DNA from: Escherichia coli
GTDB lineage: Bacteria; Pseudomonadota; Gammaproteobacteria; Enterobacterales; Enterobacteriaceae
Strand: one strand, 5' to 3'
DNA length: 64,000 nucleotides
Assembly (NCBI RefSeq): GCF_030384885.1
Contig: NZ_CP128613.1
Below are positions 15,157 to 62,736 of the stretch, in pieces; the first letter of the stretch is position 1; each line of letters starts with the position of its first letter. Both the position numbers and the translations under genes were made by a program. The notes beneath the pieces were generated by a model, which had not been told where the DNA came from, did not search any database, and worked only from the letters and a program-made list of their open reading frames with translations.

Positions 15157-16032
15157 CTAGCTCGCCGCAGCCAACTCCTCTTCTGACACCCCGGTAAATC
15201 GCATGATGTCTGCAAGAGGGACTCCGGATTCAAGCATTATTTTTGCTATATGCAAGGCTTTGGATTGTTCCCCCTCTTGCCGCAATCTTTCCGCAATAGT
15301 CATTAAACTCTCCTTGTGTTTCGGTGAACGTTCGGCAACGCCGTCGATAAAATCGTTAAAACGTACCGCATCGCCGGTTTGTAGTATGTAATTAAACAGC
15401 CCTTTGATTTGTCTGTCATTAGCGTATCCACTACTTAATAAGCAGGCCATTTGCTCTACTAGCCCCATCAGGTCGCGTTGACGTATATGTTTTTGAATTA
15501 GCTCCAGCAGCGCCATGCGCCGGTGCTGCATGATTTCATCATCAGGCATGACAGTGACATCAATCAGCGGAAATGCAGAGGCATAAAGCTGCCTTGCCAG
15601 TTTGGGATCGGCGAAACAATCCAGCCAACACAGTGAATAGGGATAGGGGCTTTCAATGCCGTGGTAAAACAACAATGGCACCACCATCGGCAACGTTTTG
15701 TATCCGGCATCCAGGTGATTTTGCATTGCGGCAATGGCGTAACGCATCATGCGAAATGCGATCAGTTTGTTTGAGGTGCTTTGATGTTCAATCAGACAAT
15801 AGATATATCCCGGTCCTTGTTCCGTTTTCACCGACCACAGCACGTCGGAATAGCTTTCACGCAGATCGTCATCAATAAAGCTGCTCGACTCCAGCTTGAG
15901 GGTTTTCATATCACAGAGCGCGTGAATAGGTGCCGGTAAATGGAACGCAAGAAAATCGCGCGCCGTCTCCGGTTGGCGTAAAAAGAGTTTGAACAGCGCA
16001 TCGTGTGGGGTGGAACTCTGCTTTTTGCTCAT
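15157..16032 (-). CDS. rpnA: Recombination-promoting nuclease RpnA (YhgA, transposase_31/PD-(D/E)XK-like)
   Basis: 291 aa; [33 protein letters not shown]..., the characteristic Rpn/YhgA N-terminus. Confidence 0.85.
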
Positions 16033-16176
16033 GGCGTTCCTTCACCTGTTGTTTGAATGCCGCGACTCTACGCGCCACTCCACACCTGTGCATTAGCGAG
16101 TTTTCATCCCTGCGAGACGCTTTCAGAGGAACTTACGTTGTACTGCAAGAGTTGCATTTTTATGGAAAGCCGCACG

Positions 16177-16215
16177 CAAAAAAGCCCGGTTGCAAACGCA
16201 TACCGGGCTTTCAAA
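16177..16215 (-). terminator. Rho-independent terminator downstream of feoC
   Basis: Stem AGCCCGGT/ACCGGGCT (16183-16190 and 16202-16209) followed on the minus strand by a T-run. Confidence 0.6.
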
Positions 16216-16233
16216 ACAGGTAGTAAAACAAGG

Positions 16234-16470
16234 TTAACGTAACGCCCACCACTCACGCAGACAGGCTTTGCCTTCCGGGCAGCTTTTACAACTCCCGGAG
16301 AGGCAGCCGTCAGGTTCTTCCTGAATTCGCACGGCTTTGCCCATACTTTCCAGCTGTTGCAGCATGGCGTTAATCATGGGTTGCGGAGTGTTCAATGTCT
16401 GGCTTATCTGGGCCGCTTCCATACGGCCCCGTAATGCCAGCAAATCACGCACCTGAATGAGCGAAGCCAT
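16234..16470 (-). CDS. feoC: Ferrous iron transport protein FeoC
   Basis: Track ORF is 92 aa; the recognised protein begins [23 protein letters not shown]... (78 aa), start trimmed to 16470. Confidence 0.85.
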
Positions 16471-16480
16471 TGCTGTATCC

Positions 16481-18802
16481 TTAGTGGCAATCGCCAGTGG
16501 TGCTGGCTGCACAGCAACTGCTTACCGATTTGCGTGTTGCCAGCAGTTCGATATCGACCCGGCTACGTGCGCGACGCAGCAAACCGATAACCACGATGTT
16601 AAACAGGATAACCGCCAGAATGCACACCAGGCTGTAAGTTGGGTGCTGGCTGTAGCTGGCGACCTGGTAGAACAATGTTGCCAGTGAGTAAGCAATATTC
16701 AGCCCCCACAGGATGGAGAAGCCCATCCAGCCACGGCTTGATTCACGGGCGATGGCCCCCATCACCGAGATACACGGTACATACAGCAGAACGAAAATCA
16801 GGTAGCTGTAAGCAGCTGCTGCGCTTCCAAATTTCTGATCCATCACGCCCATCGCTCCGGTACCCATTTCACCGTCGCCTTTGCTCGCTTCAATGGGGTT
16901 CATCAGTACGCTAAGACTGAAGGTGTCTTTCAGACTCTGCCAGGTTTCATCTACCGCGCTGAATAGCTCTTCACCGAGGTTAAATTCCGCCGGATTGAAC
17001 TCTTCATCCTGAATATTTTCTGCGGTGTAGAGAGTGTTGAGCGTACCCACTACCACTTCTTTCGCCATTGCGCCCGTGAACAGGCCAACTGTTGCCTGCC
17101 AGTTATCTTCATGTACACCAATCGGCTTGAAGACCGGGGTGATCACCCGACTAACGGAAGCCAATGCGGAGTCGTTGATGTTATCGACGATTTTCCCGCT
17201 CAGAGAGAAGCTGTTGAAAGCGCTCAGGAAAATGCTGACGATGATAATCACTTTACCAGCACGCAGAACGAAACCTTTCAGACGCTGCCAGGTCTGGATA
17301 ATCAGGCTTTTAACGTGTGGTACATGGTAGACCGGTAGCTCCATGACAAACGGCGTCGCTTCACCGCGCATGATGGTGTACTTGAGCATCAGGCCAGTCA
17401 GCACCGCCATCACAATACCGAGCATATACAGCGAGAAGACCGCCAGCGCACCGTTCTGCCCGAAGAAGGCAGCCGCGAATACGGCGAAGATAGCCAGACG
17501 CGCGCCGCAGGACATAAACGGTGCCATCATGATGGTCATCAGACGTTCACGCGGTGCATCAAGCGTACGTGCGCCCATTACCGACGGTACGTTACAACCG
17601 AAACCAACGATCAGCGGTACAAAGGATTTCCCGGGCAAGCCCAGCGCCTGCATCAGACGGTCCATCACAAACGCCGCACGCGCCATATAGCCGGAGTCCT
17701 CGAGGAAGGAGAGGAACAGGTACATCATGCCGATCTGTGGCACCAGTGGCAGAACGGTGTTAATACCGCCCCCCAGGCCCTGGGCGAGGAAGATAGTCAG
17801 CCAGTCCGGGAAGTGGAGCGTGTAGCCAATCCACTGAATACCATGCACAAATAGCGCCACGGAGCCGACGTCAAACAGTGGCTGTAACGCCCCGCCGATG
17901 TTGATAGCCAACAGGAACATCAGGTACATCACAAAGAGGAAAATCGGCAGACCGAGGAAACGGTTGAGCACGATTTTATCTACCGCAGTGGTGAAACGGC
18001 TGGGTTCTGCCGTCAGGGTGTTGCTTACCACATCACAGATGGCAGCAATGCACTGGTAACGCGCATCGGCAATGTGCAGCGCCGGATCGTCCATCTCATT
18101 ACGCAGACGGGCGAGGGCGGCATCAAGATGCTGCGACGCTTCACCGGCGTAGGCGCGGCTGTAGATATCGCCTTCCAGCATTTGCAGGCCCAGCCAGCGA
18201 CGTTGTTTGAGCGGGATGTCGGAAGGCATCACTTTTGCCAGTGAATCTGCTTCGTTGAGCAGCGGCTGTGCGTAATGCACCAGTTCCACATTCTCGTTAG
18301 CTTTATAGCGATCAATCGCCAGCTTGAGCGCTTCAATACCGCGACCACGAGTTGAAACCAGCGGGATCACCGGGCAGCCAAGACGTGCCGACAGAGCATC
18401 AATTTCAATGCGAATATTTTGCTTCTCGGCAATGTCGAGCATGTTCAGCGCCACGATGCAGGGAATGCCGAGTTCCAGCAGTTGTAGCGTCAGGTACAGG
18501 TTACGCTCAAGGTTAGACGCATCCACCACGTTAATCAGCAGGTCAGCGTCGCCACTCAAAATGTAGTGACAGGCGATTTGCTCATCGAGCGAGGTCTGCG
18601 ATGAGATGGTGGTCAGAGAATAGGTGCCGGGGAGGTCCACCAGCGTGACCTGATGATCGGTGGTGGAGAATTGCCCTTCTTTACGTTCGACGGTAACGCC
18701 AGCCCAGTTACCTACACGCTGGCGCGCGCCGGTGAGCTGGTTAAATAAGGTTGTCTTGCCAGAATTTGGATTACCAATTAAGCCAATGGTTAATTTTTTC
18801 AT
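16481..18802 (-). CDS. feoB: Ferrous iron transporter FeoB (G-protein domain plus permease)
   Basis: [25 protein letters not shown]... with a GTP-binding P-loop; the track ORF begins 4 codons upstream. Confidence 0.95.
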
Positions 18803-18818
18803 TGTTGTTATCACCGTA

Positions 18819-19046
18819 TTAACAGGAAACCGCTTCCACTTCTAATAAGGCCAGATCTTTTTTGCGTAATACCAGGCTCACACGACGGGTTTCGATATGA
18901 ATGGGGTCGCCAAGTGGAGCGACGCGCACCACATTAAAAGAGGAGCCAGGTAACATGCCAAGAGAAAGCAGTTTTTGGCGATATGCCGGGCTGATTTCAC
19001 GGGAAAAGCCAGTGATTTTCCACGCAGTATCTGGAGTGTATTGCAT
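18819..19046 (-). CDS. feoA: Ferrous iron transport protein FeoA
   Basis: 75 aa; [35 protein letters not shown]... Confidence 0.93.
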
Positions 19047-19156
19047 AGGTGCCTACTTGTTTCTCATTAACTGGATAACTACCTCATGGGGCGTTTGACA
19101 GCGACATGAGACCAGATGATTTGCCAACAAAGGAGAGATTAAATAATCAACAACAC

Positions 19157-19175
19157 AATGATAATGAGAATGGTT
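19157..19175. promoter_or_regulatory. Candidate Fur box upstream of feoA
   Basis: AATGATAATGAGAATGGTT resembles the GATAATGATAATCATTATC Fur consensus, about 110 bp upstream of the feoA ATG. Confidence 0.4.
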
Positions 19176-19235
19176 TCTATCAGCAATACTTAAAATGTGT
19201 GCGAATGTTGGTTTAGATAATAATCTGCGTGAATG

Positions 19236-19249
19236 TTGATGTGGCTCAA
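19236..19249. promoter_or_regulatory. Candidate FNR site upstream of feoA
   Basis: TTGAT-gtgg-CTCAA matches 9 of 10 positions of TTGAT-N4-ATCAA. Confidence 0.5.
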
Positions 19250-19380
19250 GGTTATATCGCAGCGAAAATATAATTCGAATGGCGAATTATCAGGGCGGGT
19301 TAATGTTTAATTAAGGTTTCATTTGTTAATTAAGTGATAAATATTGACGAAATATAGTGTGAGTTTCGTTGTGGAATAAA

Positions 19381-19410
19381 AATGCCGGAGATATTCTCCG
19401 GCATTTTTAT
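19381..19410. terminator. Bidirectional intrinsic terminator downstream of tex
   Basis: AAAAAT-GCCGGAGA-tattc-TCCGGC-ATTTTT: a hairpin flanked by A-run and T-run. Confidence 0.7.
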
Positions 19411-19429
19411 GTCAGGCATGGCGTTTATT

Positions 19430-19465
19430 GCCAGATGCGGCGTGAACGCCTGATCTGGCCTACGA
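19430..19465. repeat. REP (repetitive extragenic palindrome) element
   Basis: GCCAGATGCGGCGTGAACGCCTGATCTGGCCTAC resembles the REP consensus GCCGGATGCGGCGTGAACGCCTTATCCGGCCTAC. Confidence 0.7.
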
Positions 19466-19502
19466 TCTTGTGCAAATTCGAACCGTAGGCCAATCAGGAG
19501 GT

Positions 19503-21824
19503 TTAACGTTTTTTGCCCATTGCCGCCGCCAGCGCATCCATCATCGCGCTGTTACCGGCAGGCTGCGCTTCACGACCGCGTGGTTTGGCTGCCGGGCGGT
19601 TGTTTTGCGGGCGTTCATTACCGCCCCCGCGACGGGCGTTGGTTTCGCCAGGCTGCTCGTCCAGACGCATAGTCAGGGCGATACGTTTACGCTGAAGATC
19701 CACTTCCAGCACTTTCACCTTCACAATGTCGCCCGCTTTCACCACGGTATGCGGATCTTCCACAAACTTGTTCGACAATGAAGAGATGTGAACCAGGCCG
19801 TCCTGATGTACGCCAATATCGACAAACGCGCCAAAGTTGGTGACGTTGGTCACCGCACCTTCGAGGATCATACCCGGTTGCAGGTCGTTCATTGTCTCGA
19901 CGCCATCGGCAAACTGGGCGGTTTTAAATTCCGGACGCGGATCGCGACCCGGTTTTTCCAGCTCTTTGATGATGTCGGTTACCGTCGGCACACCGAATTT
20001 CTCATCAGTAAAGTCAGACGCTTTCAGGTTACGCAGTTCGCTGCTGTTACCCATCAGATCTTTCAGTGCCTGCTGTGTTGCTGCCAGAATGCGTTCCACC
20101 ACCGGATAGGCTTCCGGGTGAACAGTAGAGGCGTCCAGCGGGTTGTCACCGTGGTTAATGCGCAAGAAGCCTGCGCACTGCTCGAAGGCTTTTGGCCCCA
20201 GGCGGCTGACTTTTAACAGTTGCTGGCGGTTCTGGAACTGGCCGTTCTCATCGCGCCAGGCCACAATGTTTTGCGCCATCATGCGCGTCAGGCCCGCCAC
20301 GCGGGTTAACAGCGGAACGGAAGCGGTGTTGAGATCGACGCCAACGGCGTTTACGCAGTCTTCTACTACTGCATCCAGTTTGCGGGCCAGCTGCGTCTGG
20401 CTGACGTCATGCTGATACTGACCTACGCCGATAGATTTCGGATCGATTTTCACCAGCTCCGCCAGCGGATCCTGCAAACGACGGGCGATAGACACCGCGC
20501 CACGCAGCGAAACATCGAGATCCGGGAACTCCTGCGCTGCCAGCTCGGAAGCCGAGTAAACCGACGCGCCTGCTTCGCTGACGATCACTTTCTGTGCGGT
20601 CACTTTCGGAAACTGCTTCTGAACGTCGAGATAGAAACGCTCAGTTTCGCGGGAAGCCGTACCGTTACCGATTGCCACCAGTTCAACGTTATGTTTTTCA
20701 CACAAGGCAGCAACGGTCATCGCTGCTTTTGCGGCTTGTCCGGTGTGCGGATAAATGGTGTCGGTCGCCACCAGTTTACCCGTCGCATCGACTACCGCCA
20801 CTTTTACCCCGGTACGCAGACCCGGATCGAGGCCCATCGTCGCACGCAGTCCGGCTGGGGCCGCCATCAGCAGATCGTGCAGGTTACGGGCAAAGACGTT
20901 GATTGCTTCATCTTCTGCACGTTCGCGCACTGTACCCATCAGTTCGGTTTCCAGGTGCATCAGCACCTTGATGCGCCAGGTCCAGCTCACCACGCCTTTG
21001 CGCCAGCTATCCGCCGGGGCATTGTTCAGGCGCAGACCGAGGTGATCCATGATGATTTGCTCGCAATAGCTCTCTTTTGGCGGTTCGTCGAACTGCGGAT
21101 CGGCATTTAGCGAAAGCTGGAGTACGCCTTCGTTACGCCCACGGAACATCGCCAGCGCGCGGTGAGAAGGCACCGTTGACAGCGGTTCGTGATGATCGAA
21201 ATAGTCGCGGAATTTCGCCCCTTCCTCTTCTTTACCGTTCACCACCGTAGAAACCAAATGCGCGTTCTTCCACAGATAATCACGCACTTTCGCCAGCAGC
21301 GCGGCATCTTCGGCAAACCGTTCCATCAGGATATAGCGCGCGCCGTCCAGCGCGGCTTTGGTATCTGCTACGCCTTTATCGGCATCAACATATTGTGCAG
21401 CGGCGACTTCTGGCGTGTGCGACGGATCGTTCCACAGTAGGTCGGCCAGTGGCTCAAGTCCTGCTTCAATAGCAATTTGCCCGCGGGTGCGGCGTTTAGG
21501 TTTGTAGGGCAGGTAGAGGTCTTCGAGTTCGGTTTTGCTTAAGGTGGCGTTGATAGCATTCGCCAGCTCGTCGGTCAGTTTGCCTTGCTCGGAAATGGAC
21601 TTGAGGATTGCCTGACGTCTCTCTTCCAGCTCGCGCAAATAGCTCAGACGCGTTTCCAGATTACGCAGTTGCGTGTCATCCAGACCGCCGGTGATTTCCT
21701 TACGATAACGTGCGATAAACGGCACGGTATTCCCTTCGTCAAGCAGGCGAACGGCAGCGTCAACCTGTTCCGGGCGCGCCTGAATTTCACCCGCAATAAT
21801 GCGGCAGAACGAATCATTCATCAT
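19503..21824 (-). CDS. tex: Transcription accessory protein Tex (YhgF), S1 domain
   Basis: 773 aa; [43 protein letters not shown]... Confidence 0.95.
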
Positions 21825-21920
21825 GGTTTGAGTTCATCTTTTCGGATCAAAAATCAGGGGATAGTTATACGGACTGGCTGGCAAAAATGCCAGCCATCGG
21901 CAGGAGGTTAAGACTCTTCC

Positions 21921-22397
21921 TTACGGTTTCACGTACTCGATAGCATTAACATACCAGCTCGCTTCCCCGGCAGGGGTATTGACCACTGCCAGATCGCCCA
22001 CTTCTTTTTTCAGCAATGCGCGGGCCATTGGGGAATCGATAGAGATGTAATCTTTACGGCCAAAAATTTCATCGTAGCCGACAATGCGAAAACGGTGAGT
22101 CACGCCATCGTCGTTTTCAATCTCCACCCATGCGCCAAAAAAGACTTTGCCTTCCTGTTGCGGGGAGTAATCGACGATTTTGAGATTTTCCATGCATTTA
22201 GTGAGATAGCGCACGCGACGGTCGATTTCACGCAGACGCTTTTTATTATACTGATAGTCAGCATTTTCGCTGCGGTCGCCCAGACTTGCAGCCCAGGTCA
22301 CTTTTTTTGTGACCTCCGGGCGCTCTTCACGCCAGAGATAATTTAGCTCTTGTTTGAGTTTTTCATACCCTTCCCGGGTAACCAGGGGCGTTTTCAT
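21921..22397 (-). CDS. greB: Transcription elongation factor GreB
   Basis: Recognised protein begins MKTPLVTREGYEKLKQELNYLW... (158 aa); the track ORF starts 12 codons upstream. Confidence 0.93.
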   Translation of the reverse strand: MKTPLVTREGYEKLKQELNYLWREERPEVTKKVTWAASLGDRSENADYQYNKKRLREIDRRVRYLTKCMENLKIVDYSPQQEGKVFFGAWVEIENDDGVTHRFRIVGYDEIFGRKDYISIDSPMARALLKKEVGDLAVVNTPAGEASWYVNAIEYVKP

Positions 22398-22624
22398 CTC
22401 GTTGATTCCCTTTGTCTGTTTGATAATGCGCACATTGGGTATAACGTGATCATATCAACAGAATCAATAATGTTTCGCCGAATAAATTGTATACTTAAGC
22501 TGCTGTTTAATATGCTTTGTAACAATTTAGGCTGAAATTCATACCAGATTTAGCTGGTGACGAACGTAAGCTTTTTTAAGAATACACGCTTACAAATTGT
22601 TGCGAACCTTTGGGAGTACAAAGA

Positions 22625-24693
<2,069 letters not shown>

Positions 24694-24730: not shown

Positions 24731-24856
24731 GTGCACTCAGTATCTACTGAATGAATACGGTCTCAGACATCGGCACCATACGAAGTAAAGTGTACTGTAA
24801 GCTGATTGCAGGCTAGCGTATCCTGATTAGTAAAAGCACACTAAAGGAATAGCTTG

Positions 24857-26140
24857 ATGCAACTTACCAACGAAGAACAAGTACAGATTGCTCGTATAAA
24901 AGAAAAAATCCCACGCATTGCCGCACTGGATCCTGAATGTAAGTTATTCGGTTCTGAAGGTTGGAAATATCAATGGCCGAAGCCTGCCAGCGAGGCGGAA
25001 ATAGCTTCCTGGGAGAAAAAACATAGCGTCACTTTGCCACGGGAATATCGAATTTTTCTTCGCTATATCGCTAATGGCGGTCCGGCACATGCCTACGGTC
25101 TTGAATCTTTAGGCGGTACAGATATTTATGGCGATATAACAAAAGAAAGCCCTGTACCGCTTTATATGACGCAGCAGGATGTTGATGTGTTGAATGCTGG
25201 CCGTACAGAAGATGATGAAGAATATAGTTTTTTTGACGGCGCATTGACCATTCTCACCCTGGGATGTACTTATGATATTTGCCTGGTGGTGACGGGGCAG
25301 TATCGCGGAAGGTTAATGCTGACTGATGGTGATGAAGATTATCCGTTTGATTTTATATATGATAAAAATTTCCTCAACTGGTATGAACGCTGGCTGGACG
25401 ATTTTATTGCTGGCATGAGTATGAAGGGTTTCGATAGAAGTTTGCCAGGAACGCAAATTCAACTGCGTGAGTGGTTTTTAACTGAGAAAATCCCGGATTT
25501 ACGTAGATCCATTTTATTCTCGCTATGCCGTTTTCCACAGATAGAACCCGAAACTTTTGCCCTTTGGGAACATGTTTGCCGTACAGAGAATGATAAAGAA
25601 TTGTGTGAAGAGGCATTCATAAGATTACGCCAAAAAAAAGTTTCTTGTGCTGCAGATATTTTTCGACTCTATTTTGCAATGTCAGATGAATTACGTGATA
25701 TTGCTATTAAAGATCTCCGTTTTGCCTGTAGAGATAGTGTGGTGAATATTGAGGATTATATTCATTCACTGTTAATAATAATGCCTGAACTTGACGATGA
25801 CACTCTATCCTCAGCTGTCTTTGCTATACGAGAAACAGAGTATAATAAATATGATACTTTTCTGCCGCTTCTCGAACGTATCACTGATGACCGTCAGCAA
25901 ACATTATTGTGGGCGATGAGTAAGGCGCCTGATTTCAATGAAAGCCGAGGATTCGTTGAGTTGGTATTACCGCTTTTTGCATCATCAAAGATGGAGAATG
26001 TAAGGAAGGCTATTTTGTTGCTCATTGAAGTTAAAGATAATCGTATTCCACCATTGGTTGATGAAGCTGCAACTCGTTTCCCTGAACTGACCATTTTACG
26101 AGAAAACTACTATCTCAGGACGTGGGGACATAAGCCATAA
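24857..26140 (+). CDS. Accessory protein: SMI1/KNR4 (SUKH-1)-like N-terminal domain plus about 230 aa helical C-terminal extension
   Basis: N-terminus carries the SMI1/KNR4 signature (EAEIASWEKKHSVTLPREYRIFLRYIANGG ... DYPFDFIYDKNFLNWYERWLDDF). ATG at 24857 has RBS AAGGA 9 bp upstream; the track used TTG at 24854. AT-richer than flanks by eye; no K-12 counterpart remembered at this locus. Confidence 0.7.
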   Translation: MQLTNEEQVQIARIKEKIPRIAALDPECKLFGSEGWKYQWPKPASEAEIASWEKKHSVTLPREYRIFLRYIANGGPAHAYGLESLGGTDIYGDITKESPVPLYMTQQDVDVLNAGRTEDDEEYSFFDGALTILTLGCTYDICLVVTGQYRGRLMLTDGDEDYPFDFIYDKNFLNWYERWLDDFIAGMSMKGFDRSLPGTQIQLREWFLTEKIPDLRRSILFSLCRFPQIEPETFALWEHVCRTENDKELCEEAFIRLRQKKVSCAADIFRLYFAMSDELRDIAIKDLRFACRDSVVNIEDYIHSLLIIMPELDDDTLSSAVFAIRETEYNKYDTFLPLLERITDDRQQTLLWAMSKAPDFNESRGFVELVLPLFASSKMENVRKAILLLIEVKDNRIPPLVDEAATRFPELTILRENYYLRTWGHKP

Positions 26141-26177
26141 ATTAATGGTTCAGAAATGATCTAACGCGGAGAAAAAT

Positions 26178-26708
26178 ATGATCAGGGAACATATTCAGCA
26201 AGCGATAAATAATAGGTTAGCATTTGATGGCCCATTCAATGTTGTTCCTGAACCTGCAAGCACTGCGTTTGATAGCCGGATCCCGACATTGAAAAACGGT
26301 GTCTGGCAGAAGGCCAGCCCTATGTTGCAGGCGCGTTTTGCACATTGTGGACGTTGGTTAAGCGCTACACATGGAAGCTGGCTAAGTATAAGTGACATGG
26401 AAACGCTTTGGCAGGAACACATAGAAGATACGTTTCTTGATGAAATCAAAATGAATGCTGTAGCTTCAAGTGATAATTGGGATAACCATGCCTTGGGACT
26501 ATTTCGTTCTCATCGCCTGTCACTTTTTGCCGGTAGTGATTACAGTTATGAAATGGTTTTTCTCCTTTGGCTAGATAGTACCGTTGAGCCAGAGGTCTGG
26601 GTTTATGACTGCAATGGGGAATCACGTTATAAAGATCTTAATGATTACCTGAATGCATATATTAATGATGACGTAAGCGCCTGTGAGCGCTCTTGGCGAG
26701 TAGAATGA
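26178..26708 (+). CDS. Accessory small protein (176 aa), uncharacterised, possibly SUKH/immunity-like
   Basis: C-terminal segment EPEVWVYDCNGESRYKDLNDYLNAYIND resembles the C-terminal block of SUKH-type proteins; RBS GGAG 7 bp upstream; same strand as and 37 bp after the preceding ORF. Confidence 0.55.
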   Translation: MIREHIQQAINNRLAFDGPFNVVPEPASTAFDSRIPTLKNGVWQKASPMLQARFAHCGRWLSATHGSWLSISDMETLWQEHIEDTFLDEIKMNAVASSDNWDNHALGLFRSHRLSLFAGSDYSYEMVFLLWLDSTVEPEVWVYDCNGESRYKDLNDYLNAYINDDVSACERSWRVE

Positions 26709-27331
26709 ATAGCCCCCCTTGCCCCTTTGATCCACAAACCGCACATTACCTCGGCACAGTGCAAATCCACTACACCTCAACCACCTTCAACGCTGCCGTT
26801 AAGCATTATACCTATCACATTAAAAAGCGTTTTAAAGGGGTTAAATGGGGAATTGGTACCGCTGGCTTATTGGCTATATTGCCCATGATCCCACAATGGT
26901 TGAAACCTTCTCATGACTTTAAACTCAACGCAATCAGTACGTTAATTCTTCTATTAATGTTGCCACTCCTCTTATCAATGTTCCTGTTAATCAGCAGAAG
27001 AATTAACGATTTTAAGTCAAAAACAAAGCAAGTTACTTTTACGAAACCCGTGCGTTATGCGTTTTATTTCGAGGGGATTGTTTTTTATGAATCTCATCAG
27101 CAGGGCATACTTCGCTGGGAAGATTTTTATGGCATTGAGTATGAAGAAGATTATTTGTGGCTTTTTCTGCATTTACCGAAGAGTTTTCCCAGAGAAGCGA
27201 CGAAAGCGTTTTGCGATATTTTCATTCCCACCAGTGCGATAAAAGCGCAGCCTGAACTGGATACGTTTTTTCGTGAAACACGCCACTCGCTGGATTATCT
27301 GTTTGTCCCGTTTAATTCTGACAGAAAATAA
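26705..27331 (+). CDS. Accessory membrane protein, YcxB-like (two TM helices plus C-terminal bPH-like domain)
   Basis: ATG at 26705 overlaps the upstream TGA stop (ATGA); the track used TTG at 26693. Two hydrophobic helices (WGIGTAGLLAILPMIPQWL; ISTLILLLMLPLLLSMFLLI) then ...ILRWEDFYGIEYEEDYLWLFLHLPKSF..., typical of YcxB-like proteins. Confidence 0.6.
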   Translation: MNSPPCPFDPQTAHYLGTVQIHYTSTTFNAAVKHYTYHIKKRFKGVKWGIGTAGLLAILPMIPQWLKPSHDFKLNAISTLILLLMLPLLLSMFLLISRRINDFKSKTKQVTFTKPVRYAFYFEGIVFYESHQQGILRWEDFYGIEYEEDYLWLFLHLPKSFPREATKAFCDIFIPTSAIKAQPELDTFFRETRHSLDYLFVPFNSDRK

Positions 27332-27383: not shown

Positions 27384-29006
27384 TTACAGTTTTGGACCAG
27401 CCGCTACCAGCGCGGCACCCGCTGGGGTGTCGGTGTATTTATCGAAGTTGTCGATAAACAGTTTCGCCAGAGTTTCGGCTTTTTCCTGCCACTGTTCAGG
27501 AGAAGCGTAGGTGTTACGCGGATCGAGGATCTTAGTGTCTACGCCCGGCAGTTCAGTCGGGATTGCCAGGTTAAACATCGGCAAAGTGAAGGTTTCTGCG
27601 TTATCCAGCGAACCGTTGAGGATGGCGTCGATAATGGCGCGGGTATCTTTAATGGAGATACGTTTGCCAGTACCGTTCCAGCCAGTGTTAACCAGATATG
27701 CCTGCGCACCCGCCGCTTGCATACGTTTCACCAGCACTTCTGCGTACTGAGTTGGGTGCAGCGACAGGAACGCCGCGCCGAAGCAAGCGGAGAAGGTTGG
27801 CGTCGGTTCGGTGATGCCACGTTCAGTACCGGCCAGTTTGGCGGTGAAGCCAGAGAGGAAGTGGTACTGAGTTTGATCGGCAGTCAGGCGAGAAACCGGC
27901 GGCAGCACACCAAAGGCGTCTGCGGTCAGGAAGATAACTTTAGTTGCGTGGCCCGCTTTGGAAACCGGTTTAACGATGTTATCGATGTGATAGATCGGAT
28001 AAGAAACGCGGGTGTTCTCGGTTTTTGAACCATCGTCAAAATCGATAGTGCCATCTTCACGTACGGTGACGTTTTCCAGCAGCGCATCGCGACGGATAGC
28101 GTTGTAGATTTCAGGTTCCGCTTCTTTCGACAGCTTGATGGTTTTCGCGTAGCAGCCGCCTTCGAAGTTAAACACGCCGTCGTCATCCCAGCCGTGCTCG
28201 TCATCGCCAATCAGGCGACGTTTCGGGTCGGTGGAAAGGGTGGTTTTACCGGTGCCGGAAAGGCCAAAGAACACCGCAACATCGCCTTTCTCGCCAACGT
28301 TGGCGGAGCAGTGCATAGAAGCGATGCCTTTCAGCGGCAGCAGGTAGTTCATCATCGAGAACATCCCTTTCTTCATTTCGCCGCCGTACCAGGTACCGCC
28401 AATCAACTGCATACGCTCGGTCAGGTTAAACGCCACGAAGTTTTCAGAGTTCAGCCCCTGCTCTTTCCACTGGGGGTTAGTGCATTTTGCGCCGTTCATA
28501 ACGATAAAGTCAGGTTTAAAACCAGCCAGCTCTTCATCGCTCGGGCGAATAAACATGTTTTTGACAAAATGCGCCTGCCAGGCCACTTCGGTGATGAAAC
28601 GGACGGAAAGACGCGTGTCTGGGTTCGCACCACAGAAAGCGTCGACAACGAACAGACGTTTGCCAGAAAGCTGTTTGGTCACCAGGCCCTTCAGATGCTG
28701 CCAGGTTTCCGGAGAGAGAGGTTTGTTGTCGTTCTTACCTTTGCCTTTATCAGCCCACCAGAAGGTATCGCGAGTGGTATCGTCACGGACGATATACTTA
28801 TCTTTTGGTGAGCGACCGGTGAATATACCGGTATCGACGGCAACGGCACCCAGATTAGTTAACACCCCGCGCTCATAACCTGTCAGGCTCGGATCGAGCT
28901 CTTCCTGATACAGCAGGTCGTAGCTTGGGTTGTAAACGATATCATGTACGTCACTGATACCATAAGCCTCGAGTTCTTGCGGGGTCAAACCATTGTTAAC
29001 GCGCAT
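27384..29006 (-). CDS. pckA: Phosphoenolpyruvate carboxykinase (ATP)
   Basis: Recognised protein begins [30 protein letters not shown]... (540 aa); the track ORF starts 23 codons upstream. Confidence 0.95.
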
Positions 29007-29124
29007 TTCACTGCTCCTTAGCCAATATGTATTGCCTGAATAGTAAAGTCTTTTTGGGGGTGTTAACCGCGACAAGGCTCATAGATTTACGTATCTGGAG
29101 AAATTCATATTTGACAAAAAACTC

Positions 29125-35437: not shown

Positions 35438-35756
35438 GCTTTCCCCATCTTACTTAGTCTGTCAGGCGTGGTCAGTCGCACCGGACACAATACATGATTC
35501 TGCGGTTGGCTATCGGCAAGCGTGGAGTTTAACTTGAGCATCATTAAGCACATCACAGTAACCGCTGATCATAGCAAACCCTCTGAAGGCGGAATATCAG
35601 CAAATTCCTGGAGTTATTTCAACCTATTGACTTTTAATTTGATTTGAGGATGATTATTTAATAAGTTACATAAATGTAAATAACATGCAATTCACATTGC
35701 CGAAAGCGTGTCCGATATCGCACAATAACCGCTGATTTCACAGCATAGATCCCACG

Positions 35757-62722: not shown

Positions 62723-62736
62723 TTGATGTAAATCAA
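62723..62736 (-). promoter_or_regulatory. FNR binding site of the nirB promoter
   Basis: TTGAT-gtaa-ATCAA is a perfect match to the FNR consensus, about 65 bp upstream of the nirB ATG. Confidence 0.85.

Follow-up and report, generated by a model that had tools for sequence, protein, structure and literature searches.

The closest described counterpart of the region studied here is the feoABC promoter region of Escherichia coli K-12, reportedly treated by Kammler and colleagues in 1993. For activators of the CRP/FNR family that act from upstream of the −35 element, the class I positions of CRP are −61.5, −72.5, −82.5 and −92.5. At ansB, FNR at −41.5 acts together with an upstream activator at −91.5. 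FNR itself was found at −41.5 ± 4 in 19 of 23 FNR-activated promoters, the class II arrangement, and sites at −61.5 or beyond are rare (Myers et al., 2013). Published occupancy and genetics show that feoABC is anaerobically induced in an FNR-dependent manner and that FNR and ArcA bind upstream of it, while a feoA-lacZ fusion revealed Fur repression under anaerobic conditions only, an effect that its authors credited to activation by FNR/ArcA.

Here we describe the corresponding region in a divergent E. coli genome. "The window" refers throughout to the whole stretch of DNA that was analysed, 64 kb in length.

Materials and methods

Published coordinates were converted to positions of the window with an offset of 1978 to NC_000913.3, which was fixed on the FNR 14-mer and verified on the ArcA 21-mer, two independent anchors. 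We built our own position weight matrices. The FNR matrix was derived from 62 ChIP-bound sites with feoA excluded (training range 11.7–21.2 bits, median 15.3), and the ArcA matrix from 114 published boxes (training range 9.7–21.6 bits). The Fur matrix was obtained from 22 sites of 18 K-12 Fur promoters by consensus-seeded refinement on whole intergenic regions, among which yncE (35 bp) supplied a sequence that is not a site; intergenic regions were used instead of peak coordinates because some ChIP-exo peaks (ryhB, fec) lie 100–300 bp off known promoters. For the comparison between species we used FeoA-anchored loci of 80 Enterobacteriaceae species (L003–L082), 81 sequences with the window included among them.

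Results

Locus and kinship to K-12

Positions 19047–19502 of the window make up the entire tex (yhgF)–feoA intergenic region, 456 bp with minus-strand transcription. Read in that direction, the tex stop codon is followed by a REP element, a terminator, upstream activator sites, the promoter, a leader and feoA (Table 1), after which come feoB and feoC. It is the feoABC control region, which is already known and for which control by Fur, FNR, ArcA and OmpR is established. The first-pass annotation, made from the letters alone, had recognized it as such with exact coordinates, and the four elements that it named, an FNR-like site, a Fur-like site, a terminator and a REP element, are all real and in place; it had passed over the core promoter, the ArcA/OmpR box (19303–19343) and the distal geometry of the FNR site, which stands about 90 bp from the start site and not at the usual −41.5. 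Its gene assignments (tex/yhgF, feoA, feoB and feoC) agree with K-12, which has the same gene arrangement and the same spacer length, and with the RefSeq annotation of E. coli 2013C-4282 (greB, yhgF of the Tex family, feoA, feoB, feoC), a genome in which the 456 bp are 100% identical. The tex/yhgF ORF, also of the Tex family, occupies 21824–19503 on the minus strand, stop codon included, and encodes 773 aa.

Table 1. Features of the feoABC control region, with their positions in the window and the evidence used to place them.
Feature	Position	Strand	Basis
feoA coding sequence, first gene of feoABC	18819–19046	−	ORF list and RefSeq annotation
feoA 5′ leader, about 106 nt	19047–19151	−	Identical to K-12
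Fur operator, hexamer array ATTCTC-ATTATC-ATTGTG	19151–19184		ChIP-exo peak and own matrix
Transcription start site of the literature, ±2 nt	19152	−	Back-calculated from the ArcA position of Park et al. (2013)
Putative −10 hexamer TATCAT	19158–19163	−	Invariant block CATTCTCATTATCAT across Enterobacteriaceae
Putative −35 hexamer TTGCTG	19181–19186	−	17-bp spacing to TATCAT, conservation
Degraded upstream Fur-like box, called the second "Fur box" in papers on K-12	19216–19237		Matrix comparison
FNR site, centre 19242.5, about −90.5 from the start site	19236–19249		Published site, ChIP-seq, own matrix
ArcA box array, direct repeats antisense to feoA	19303–19343	+	Own matrix, published box and ChIP peak
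OmpR/RstA-type motif TTATCA-N5-TTAACA, within the ArcA box array	19324–19340	+	Motif of Gerken et al. (2020)
Intrinsic terminator, bidirectional, with a GC-rich hairpin between A5 and T5	19375–19410		Fold energy against shuffles
REP, one copy, in the 3′ untranslated part of tex/yhgF	19430–19463		REP consensus, 3 mismatches
Second inverted repeat beside REP, core GGCCTACG ... CGTAGGCC	19452–19497		Fold

The spacers of the window and K-12 align without gaps. They are 100% identical across 19047–19215 (feoA ATG to −169) and again at the FNR site, and the divergence, which amounts to about 6.5% over the whole region, falls mainly in the distal 287 bp; over the distal 300 bp, identity is about 90%. 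The greB–yhgF–feoABC stretch (15600–22200) is about 96% identical to K-12, with the alignment failing after feoC. Against this locus-wide value, the 270 bp from −169 to +100 around the feoA ATG are 100% identical, a contrast that we count as a probable sign of selective constraint. Because 19047–19215 is identical, the Fur binding data from K-12 transfer directly to the window. By our judgement, about 96% is a high divergence from K-12 for E. coli, and the strain seems to come from a divergent lineage. The region itself is present in 5424 of 5426 complete E. coli genomes, in single copy in nearly all, and only three of the 5426 carry the spacer allele of the window at an identity of at least 99%.

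Probable insulation from tex

The clean terminator hairpin that had been noted between tex and the feo region was borne out. Its stem, GCCGGAGA/TCTCCGGC, lies between A5 and T5, and the 8 GC-rich pairs, lengthened by A/U pairs, are accompanied by U5 on both strands, as in an intrinsic terminator. The fold energy is −22.9 kcal/mol (z = −7.3) for the minus strand, compared with −24.6 kcal/mol (z = −6.7) for the plus strand, and none of 200 shuffles folded as well. Given the A5 run on one side and the T5 run on the other, the hairpin could work in both directions. A simple consensus scanner made no call for the terminator, since pairing between the A and T tracts shifts the tail.

Between the tex stop codon and this hairpin, the REP element that was said to separate the region from tex is likewise present: GCCAGATGCGGCGTGAACGCCTGATCTGGCCTAC agrees with the REP consensus at 31 of 34 positions, where 0 matches were expected by chance. 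The REP-derived Rfam family naRNA4 matched over half its length (34.9 bits, E = 6.7e-5), below its gathering score of 59.5. The second inverted repeat beside REP forms a stem of about 16 pairs in both orientations, and the entire 91-nt REP region folds with z of about −3. The Rfam families HrrF, STnc390, MicC, sroD, isrF and AaHKsRNA41 were rejected as RNA genes, with scores well under their gathering scores and alignments that rest on the generic terminator hairpin; of all Rfam matches, we regard only the one to naRNA4 as meaningful, in the sense of a REP.

Likely core promoter

Park et al. (2013) list the ArcA box of feoA, at 3537888–3537908, as "−191 to −171", and this distance would put the start site at 3538079, position 19152 of the window. 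The assignment rests on that table because the TSS supplements of Kim 2012 and Ettwiller 2016 gave nothing for feoA. The hexamer TATCAT lies 6–7 nt upstream of the start site so implied, and together with TTGCTG it forms a pair, TTGCTG-17-TATCAT, that matches the consensus at 3/6 and 5/6 positions, fits the literature start site and is conserved, the TTG of the −35 being kept in all genera as TTGCTG, TTGATG or TTGAAG. This pair is likely the core promoter, with its −10 and spacer overlapped by the Fur operator. The consensus promoter scan returned no sigma-70 promoter in the region at its threshold, for which these hexamers are too weak.

A different pair was given for the yhgF>feoA spacer by genomic SELEX (Shimada et al., 2014), about 20 bp downstream: TTATCA (19164–19159)-15-TTTAAT (19143–19138). 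If this were the core promoter, transcription would start near 19131, Fur would overlap the −35 and FNR would stand at about −111. We consider such a placement improbable. Its 15-bp spacer is poor, and the SELEX hexamers are unconserved outside the Escherichia–Salmonella–Citrobacter–Enterobacter group; TTTAAT is not kept in Klebsiella, Kluyvera and Raoultella, whereas TTGnTG-17-TATCAT is kept everywhere. Moreover, the start site of Park et al. (2013) is at 19152 and the ChIP-exo peak of Fur ends at 19151, both of which speak against the SELEX pair.

Fur operator

A Fur ChIP-exo peak at 3538047–3538080, seen under iron-replete conditions only (Seo 2014/Gao 2023), converts to 19184–19151, where the window has the peak sequence, GCTGATAGAAACCATTCTCATTATCATTGTGTTG, unchanged. 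The operator covers the putative −35/−10 spacer, the putative −10 and the literature start site. Our matrix gave its best match in the region at 19160–19178 (GATAATGAGAATGGTTTCT, 12.5 bits, third best in the window), which agrees with the Fur consensus GATAATGATAATCATTATC at 13 of 19 positions and is flanked at ±6 bp by weaker matches of about 5 bits, the pattern that a hexamer array would give. Chen et al. (2007), with an information-theory Fur model, assigned to feo sites of 10.9 and 13.4 bits, plus one of 10.5 bits at 3538006, which convert to 19172, 19166 and 19225, respectively; the same authors state that the feo Fur regions had not been footprinted.

The AT-rich Fur-like 19-mer of the first-pass annotation (AATGATAATGAGAATGGTT, 19157–19175), which had been offered as tentative, lies inside the ChIP-exo peak, and its centre (19166) coincides with the 13.4-bit site of Chen et al. 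(2007), but the classical register is 3 bp away, at 19160–19178. In the matrix scan that had been proposed as a check, 12.5 bits ranks third in the window, and of 2000 mononucleotide shuffles 59 scored as high, as did 128 of as many first-order Markov resamples (p about 0.03–0.06). A Fur matrix score of such modest significance is, taken alone, weak evidence in AT-rich DNA, and it is the published occupancy and the conservation that carry the case.

A second, degraded Fur-like box lies farther upstream. In K-12 it scores 6.95 bits with our matrix and corresponds to the 10.5-bit site of Chen et al. (2007). Five substitutions clustered at 19216–19230 (TTGAGTCAGATTATTATTC to TTCACGCAGATTATTATCT), by which the window departs from K-12 and other Escherichia, lower the score to less than 3 bits. 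The same substitutions remove a second TTGAG half-site just downstream of the FNR site.

FNR site

The plus-strand letters TTGATGTGGCTCAA (TTGAT-gtgg-CTCAA) read TTGAGCCACATCAA on the minus strand, which Myers et al. (2013) give as the predicted FNR site of feoA (U00096.2 3537982, PatSer 14.6) beneath an FNR ChIP-seq peak whose deconvolved summit is at 3537996. The window 14-mer is the same letter for letter, and after conversion the published site falls at 19249–19236 and the summit at 19235. The position that had been proposed for an FNR site is therefore exact, with a published site and a ChIP-seq peak on identical sequence. A scan with our matrix gave the same answer: the site scored 15.7 bits, near the training median, ranked 26th of 62 against the bound sites, agreed with the consensus at 9/10 positions and was the second-best match in the window, behind nirB. 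Shuffles of the intergenic region yielded an equally good match in 9 of 2000 cases. The top match, TTGATTTACATCAA at 62723–62736 (20.6 bits, perfect), served as a positive control and is the 14-mer of Myers et al. (2013) for nirB. In the literature examined, we found no footprint or site-directed test of the feoA site.

Across the Enterobacteriaceae, the Fur core ATT(C/A)TCATTA was present in every locus compared, and the block TTGnTGATAnAAACCATTCTCATTATCAT was nearly invariant. In 78 of the 81 sequences, 70 or 71 bp separated the Fur core from the FNR centre upstream of it. The distance was 61 bp, one helical turn less, in Enterobacter sp. kpr-6 (L061), and two Cedecea loci (L070, L080) had no FNR site at that place and a consensus FNR site about 235–245 bp upstream of the Fur box. 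Conserved half-sites enclosed a drifting spacer in the 79 sites, with TTG (positions 1–3) and TCAA (positions 11–14) invariant and positions 6, 7 and 9 taking all four bases. The segment from the ArcA box to the FNR site held many indels, and the Fur core stood 52 to 254 bp from the ATG, leaving leaders of about 35 to 235 nt. The fixed FNR-to-Fur spacing, combined with a leader of variable length, argues for selection on the geometry between FNR and the putative promoter.

With its centre about 90.5 bp from the start site of Park et al. (2013), the FNR site is outside the class II range of −41.5 ± 4. Given that the spacing is conserved, we infer a class-I-like contact of FNR from an upstream, helically phased position, so that FNR would act at feoA from about −90. 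A class II arrangement would instead require a separate anaerobic promoter starting near 19201, with the Fur operator as a roadblock at about +30. Three points speak for such a promoter: FNR activation uses the class II geometry far more often than any other, start sites are usually mapped aerobically, and K-12 carries a weak Fur-like box, its second, shortly downstream of the FNR site. Even so, we hold it to be quite unlikely. Between the FNR site and the Fur box, no −10 was found at the required distance in any genus compared: 23–28 bp past the site there is no −10-like hexamer, with AACCAA in the window and nothing conserved in other genera, and the nearest −10-like hexamer, TATTAT at 19222–19217, would put FNR at about −33. 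Furthermore, the conserved spacing runs to the Fur/−10 block and to nothing between.

The FNR palindrome could also, or instead, drive transcription in the other direction. On the plus strand a perfect TATAAT (19269–19274) stands 19 bp past the FNR site, a distance that would correspond to FNR at about −38.5, within ±4 of the class II position, and the hairpin terminates equally well on that strand, so that a divergent RNA of about 130 nt might run from this promoter to the terminator; K-12 keeps both TATAAT and terminator. The FNR site would then be bifunctional, activating feoA distally and, as a class II site at about −38.5, a divergent RNA at 19281–19412 (plus strand) in part of Escherichia only. 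We judge this very unlikely. E. whittamii and another E. coli lineage have ATAAAA in place of the hexamer, which is missing from the other genera, the body of the RNA folds no better than shuffles (z = −1.7), its plus-strand Rfam matches are sub-threshold and driven by the terminator, and no such RNA is named in the literature found. Separately, we observed the plus-strand TATAAT in E. albertii as well.

That the FNR-like and Fur-like words are functionless chance matches in AT-rich DNA has next to no probability, even with Fur-matrix scores this strong in 3–6% of shuffled regions, and is already refuted by published ChIP-seq and ChIP-exo occupancy exactly at these positions and by half-sites that are invariant while spacers vary across 79 species, the FNR match being second in 64 kb after nirB. 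Distal activation of feoA from the FNR site, with Fur on the core promoter, remains our reading of these two elements.

ArcA/OmpR box

The feoA ArcA box of Park et al. (2013), TTGTTAATGAAATGATAA, which is accompanied by a ChIP peak, converts to 19343–19323, where the window has the allele TTGTTAATTAAGTGATAA. The two substitutions relative to K-12 are both in the spacer, and the box is conserved across genera. With our ArcA matrix, 19323–19340 scored 16.6 bits, the second-best match in the window (K-12 allele, 17.2), and a neighbouring box at 19303–19320 scored 11.2 bits. The array contains at least two direct repeats of TGTTA at 11-bp spacing, and its 16.6 bits, a value within the training range, was equalled in 14 of 1500 resamples. 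Within the same array, the TTATCA-N5-TTAACA motif corresponds to that of the electrophoretic mobility shift assays of Gerken et al. (2020), in which OmpR shifted only the fragment that contained it. The best ArcA-matrix match in the window was AAGTTACATAAATGTAAA at 35663–35680 on the plus strand (18.9 bits).

The 5′ leader

In Escherichia and Citrobacter, the leader contains a segment of about 70 nt with a central GC hairpin, CUCAUG/CAUGAG. The hairpin sequence differs by genus (GCGCCG...CGGCGC in Klebsiella, GCGCC...GGCGC in Kosakonia), and the leaders of Enterobacter, Lelliottia and Leclercia are without the segment and about 35 nt long. The central hairpin had a median z of −1.2, with 14 of 61 below −2. 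The whole leader folded like its shuffles (z = −0.01), and for a conserved structure RNAalifold predicted no pairs. A 7-codon ORF at 19107–19084, with no obvious ribosome-binding site, overlaps the leader stem.

Other observations in the window

A low-GC (38–44%) insert of 2.6 kb was found at 24854–27331 (plus strand), between envZ, which ends at 24693, and pck (27384–29075, minus strand); K-12 is not known to have genes between envZ and pck. The insert has three ORFs of 428, 176 and 212 aa. The first carries a SUKH-1/SMI1-KNR4 domain (Pfam, E = 1.2e-6), typical of polymorphic-toxin immunity proteins, and the other two had no Pfam or PADLOC match. Four matches of 11–14 bits to the Fur matrix were found in this insert and most likely stem from base composition. 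In addition, a published Fur ChIP-exo peak labelled ompR (U00096.2 3534739–3534772), recorded under both iron-replete and iron-starved conditions, converts to about 22459–22492, in the greB–ompR intergenic region.

Discussion

A model of five parts, namely insulation, core promoter, Fur, FNR and ArcA/OmpR, very probably gives the best explanation of the tex–feoA spacer. Transcription of tex (yhgF) would pass the REP element and end at the bidirectional terminator (19375–19410), leaving feoA insulated. Transcription of feoA would begin near 19152 from a weak sigma-70 promoter, with the putative −35 TTGCTG at 19186–19181 and −10 TATCAT at 19163–19158. When iron is sufficient, Fe2+-Fur would repress from its overlapping hexamers, at about −32 to +2 (19184–19151); the binding itself is published (ChIP-exo), and its position over the putative −10 and start site suggests that Fur occludes RNA polymerase. 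When oxygen is absent, an FNR dimer on the near-consensus palindrome at 19236–19249, about 90 bp upstream, would activate, and ArcA-P, as well as OmpR or RstA under other signals, would bind the direct repeats at 19303–19343, about −150 to −190. The net logic would be that the transporter is expressed when Fe2+ is likely available (anoxia) and needed (low iron).

The value of the window for understanding feoABC is modest, the allele being identical to K-12 in every core element. The distal, phase-conserved position of the FNR site is the sole mildly unusual feature of the region: FNR action from about −90 is a rarely documented geometry that has not been dissected in the literature examined. 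In addition, a lineage without the weak upstream Fur-like box of K-12 provides a natural test of whether that box matters.

Compared with the feoABC promoter of K-12, the window has the same locus, length (456 bp) and order of elements, with FNR 14-mer, Fur operator and leader identical, and differs in a weaker ArcA/OmpR box (16.6 vs. 17.2 bits) and in the loss of the weak upstream Fur-like box. Like the sites of class I activation in the CRP/FNR family, the feoA FNR site is upstream of the −35 and on a fixed helical face, with a variant one turn off. Unlike them, it belongs to a class of FNR sites beyond −61.5 that is rare, and no partner site is evident here at −41.5; a contact with the RNA polymerase alpha subunit at feoA would be conjectural. 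Finally, the feoA operator resembles those of the Fur-repressed promoters fhuA, fepA-fes, cirA and ryhB in its GATAAT-like hexamers, here over the putative −10/−35, and in its iron-dependent occupancy. It differs from these classical promoters in being weaker (12.5 bits vs. a training median of 16.3) and in a repression that is seen anaerobically only.
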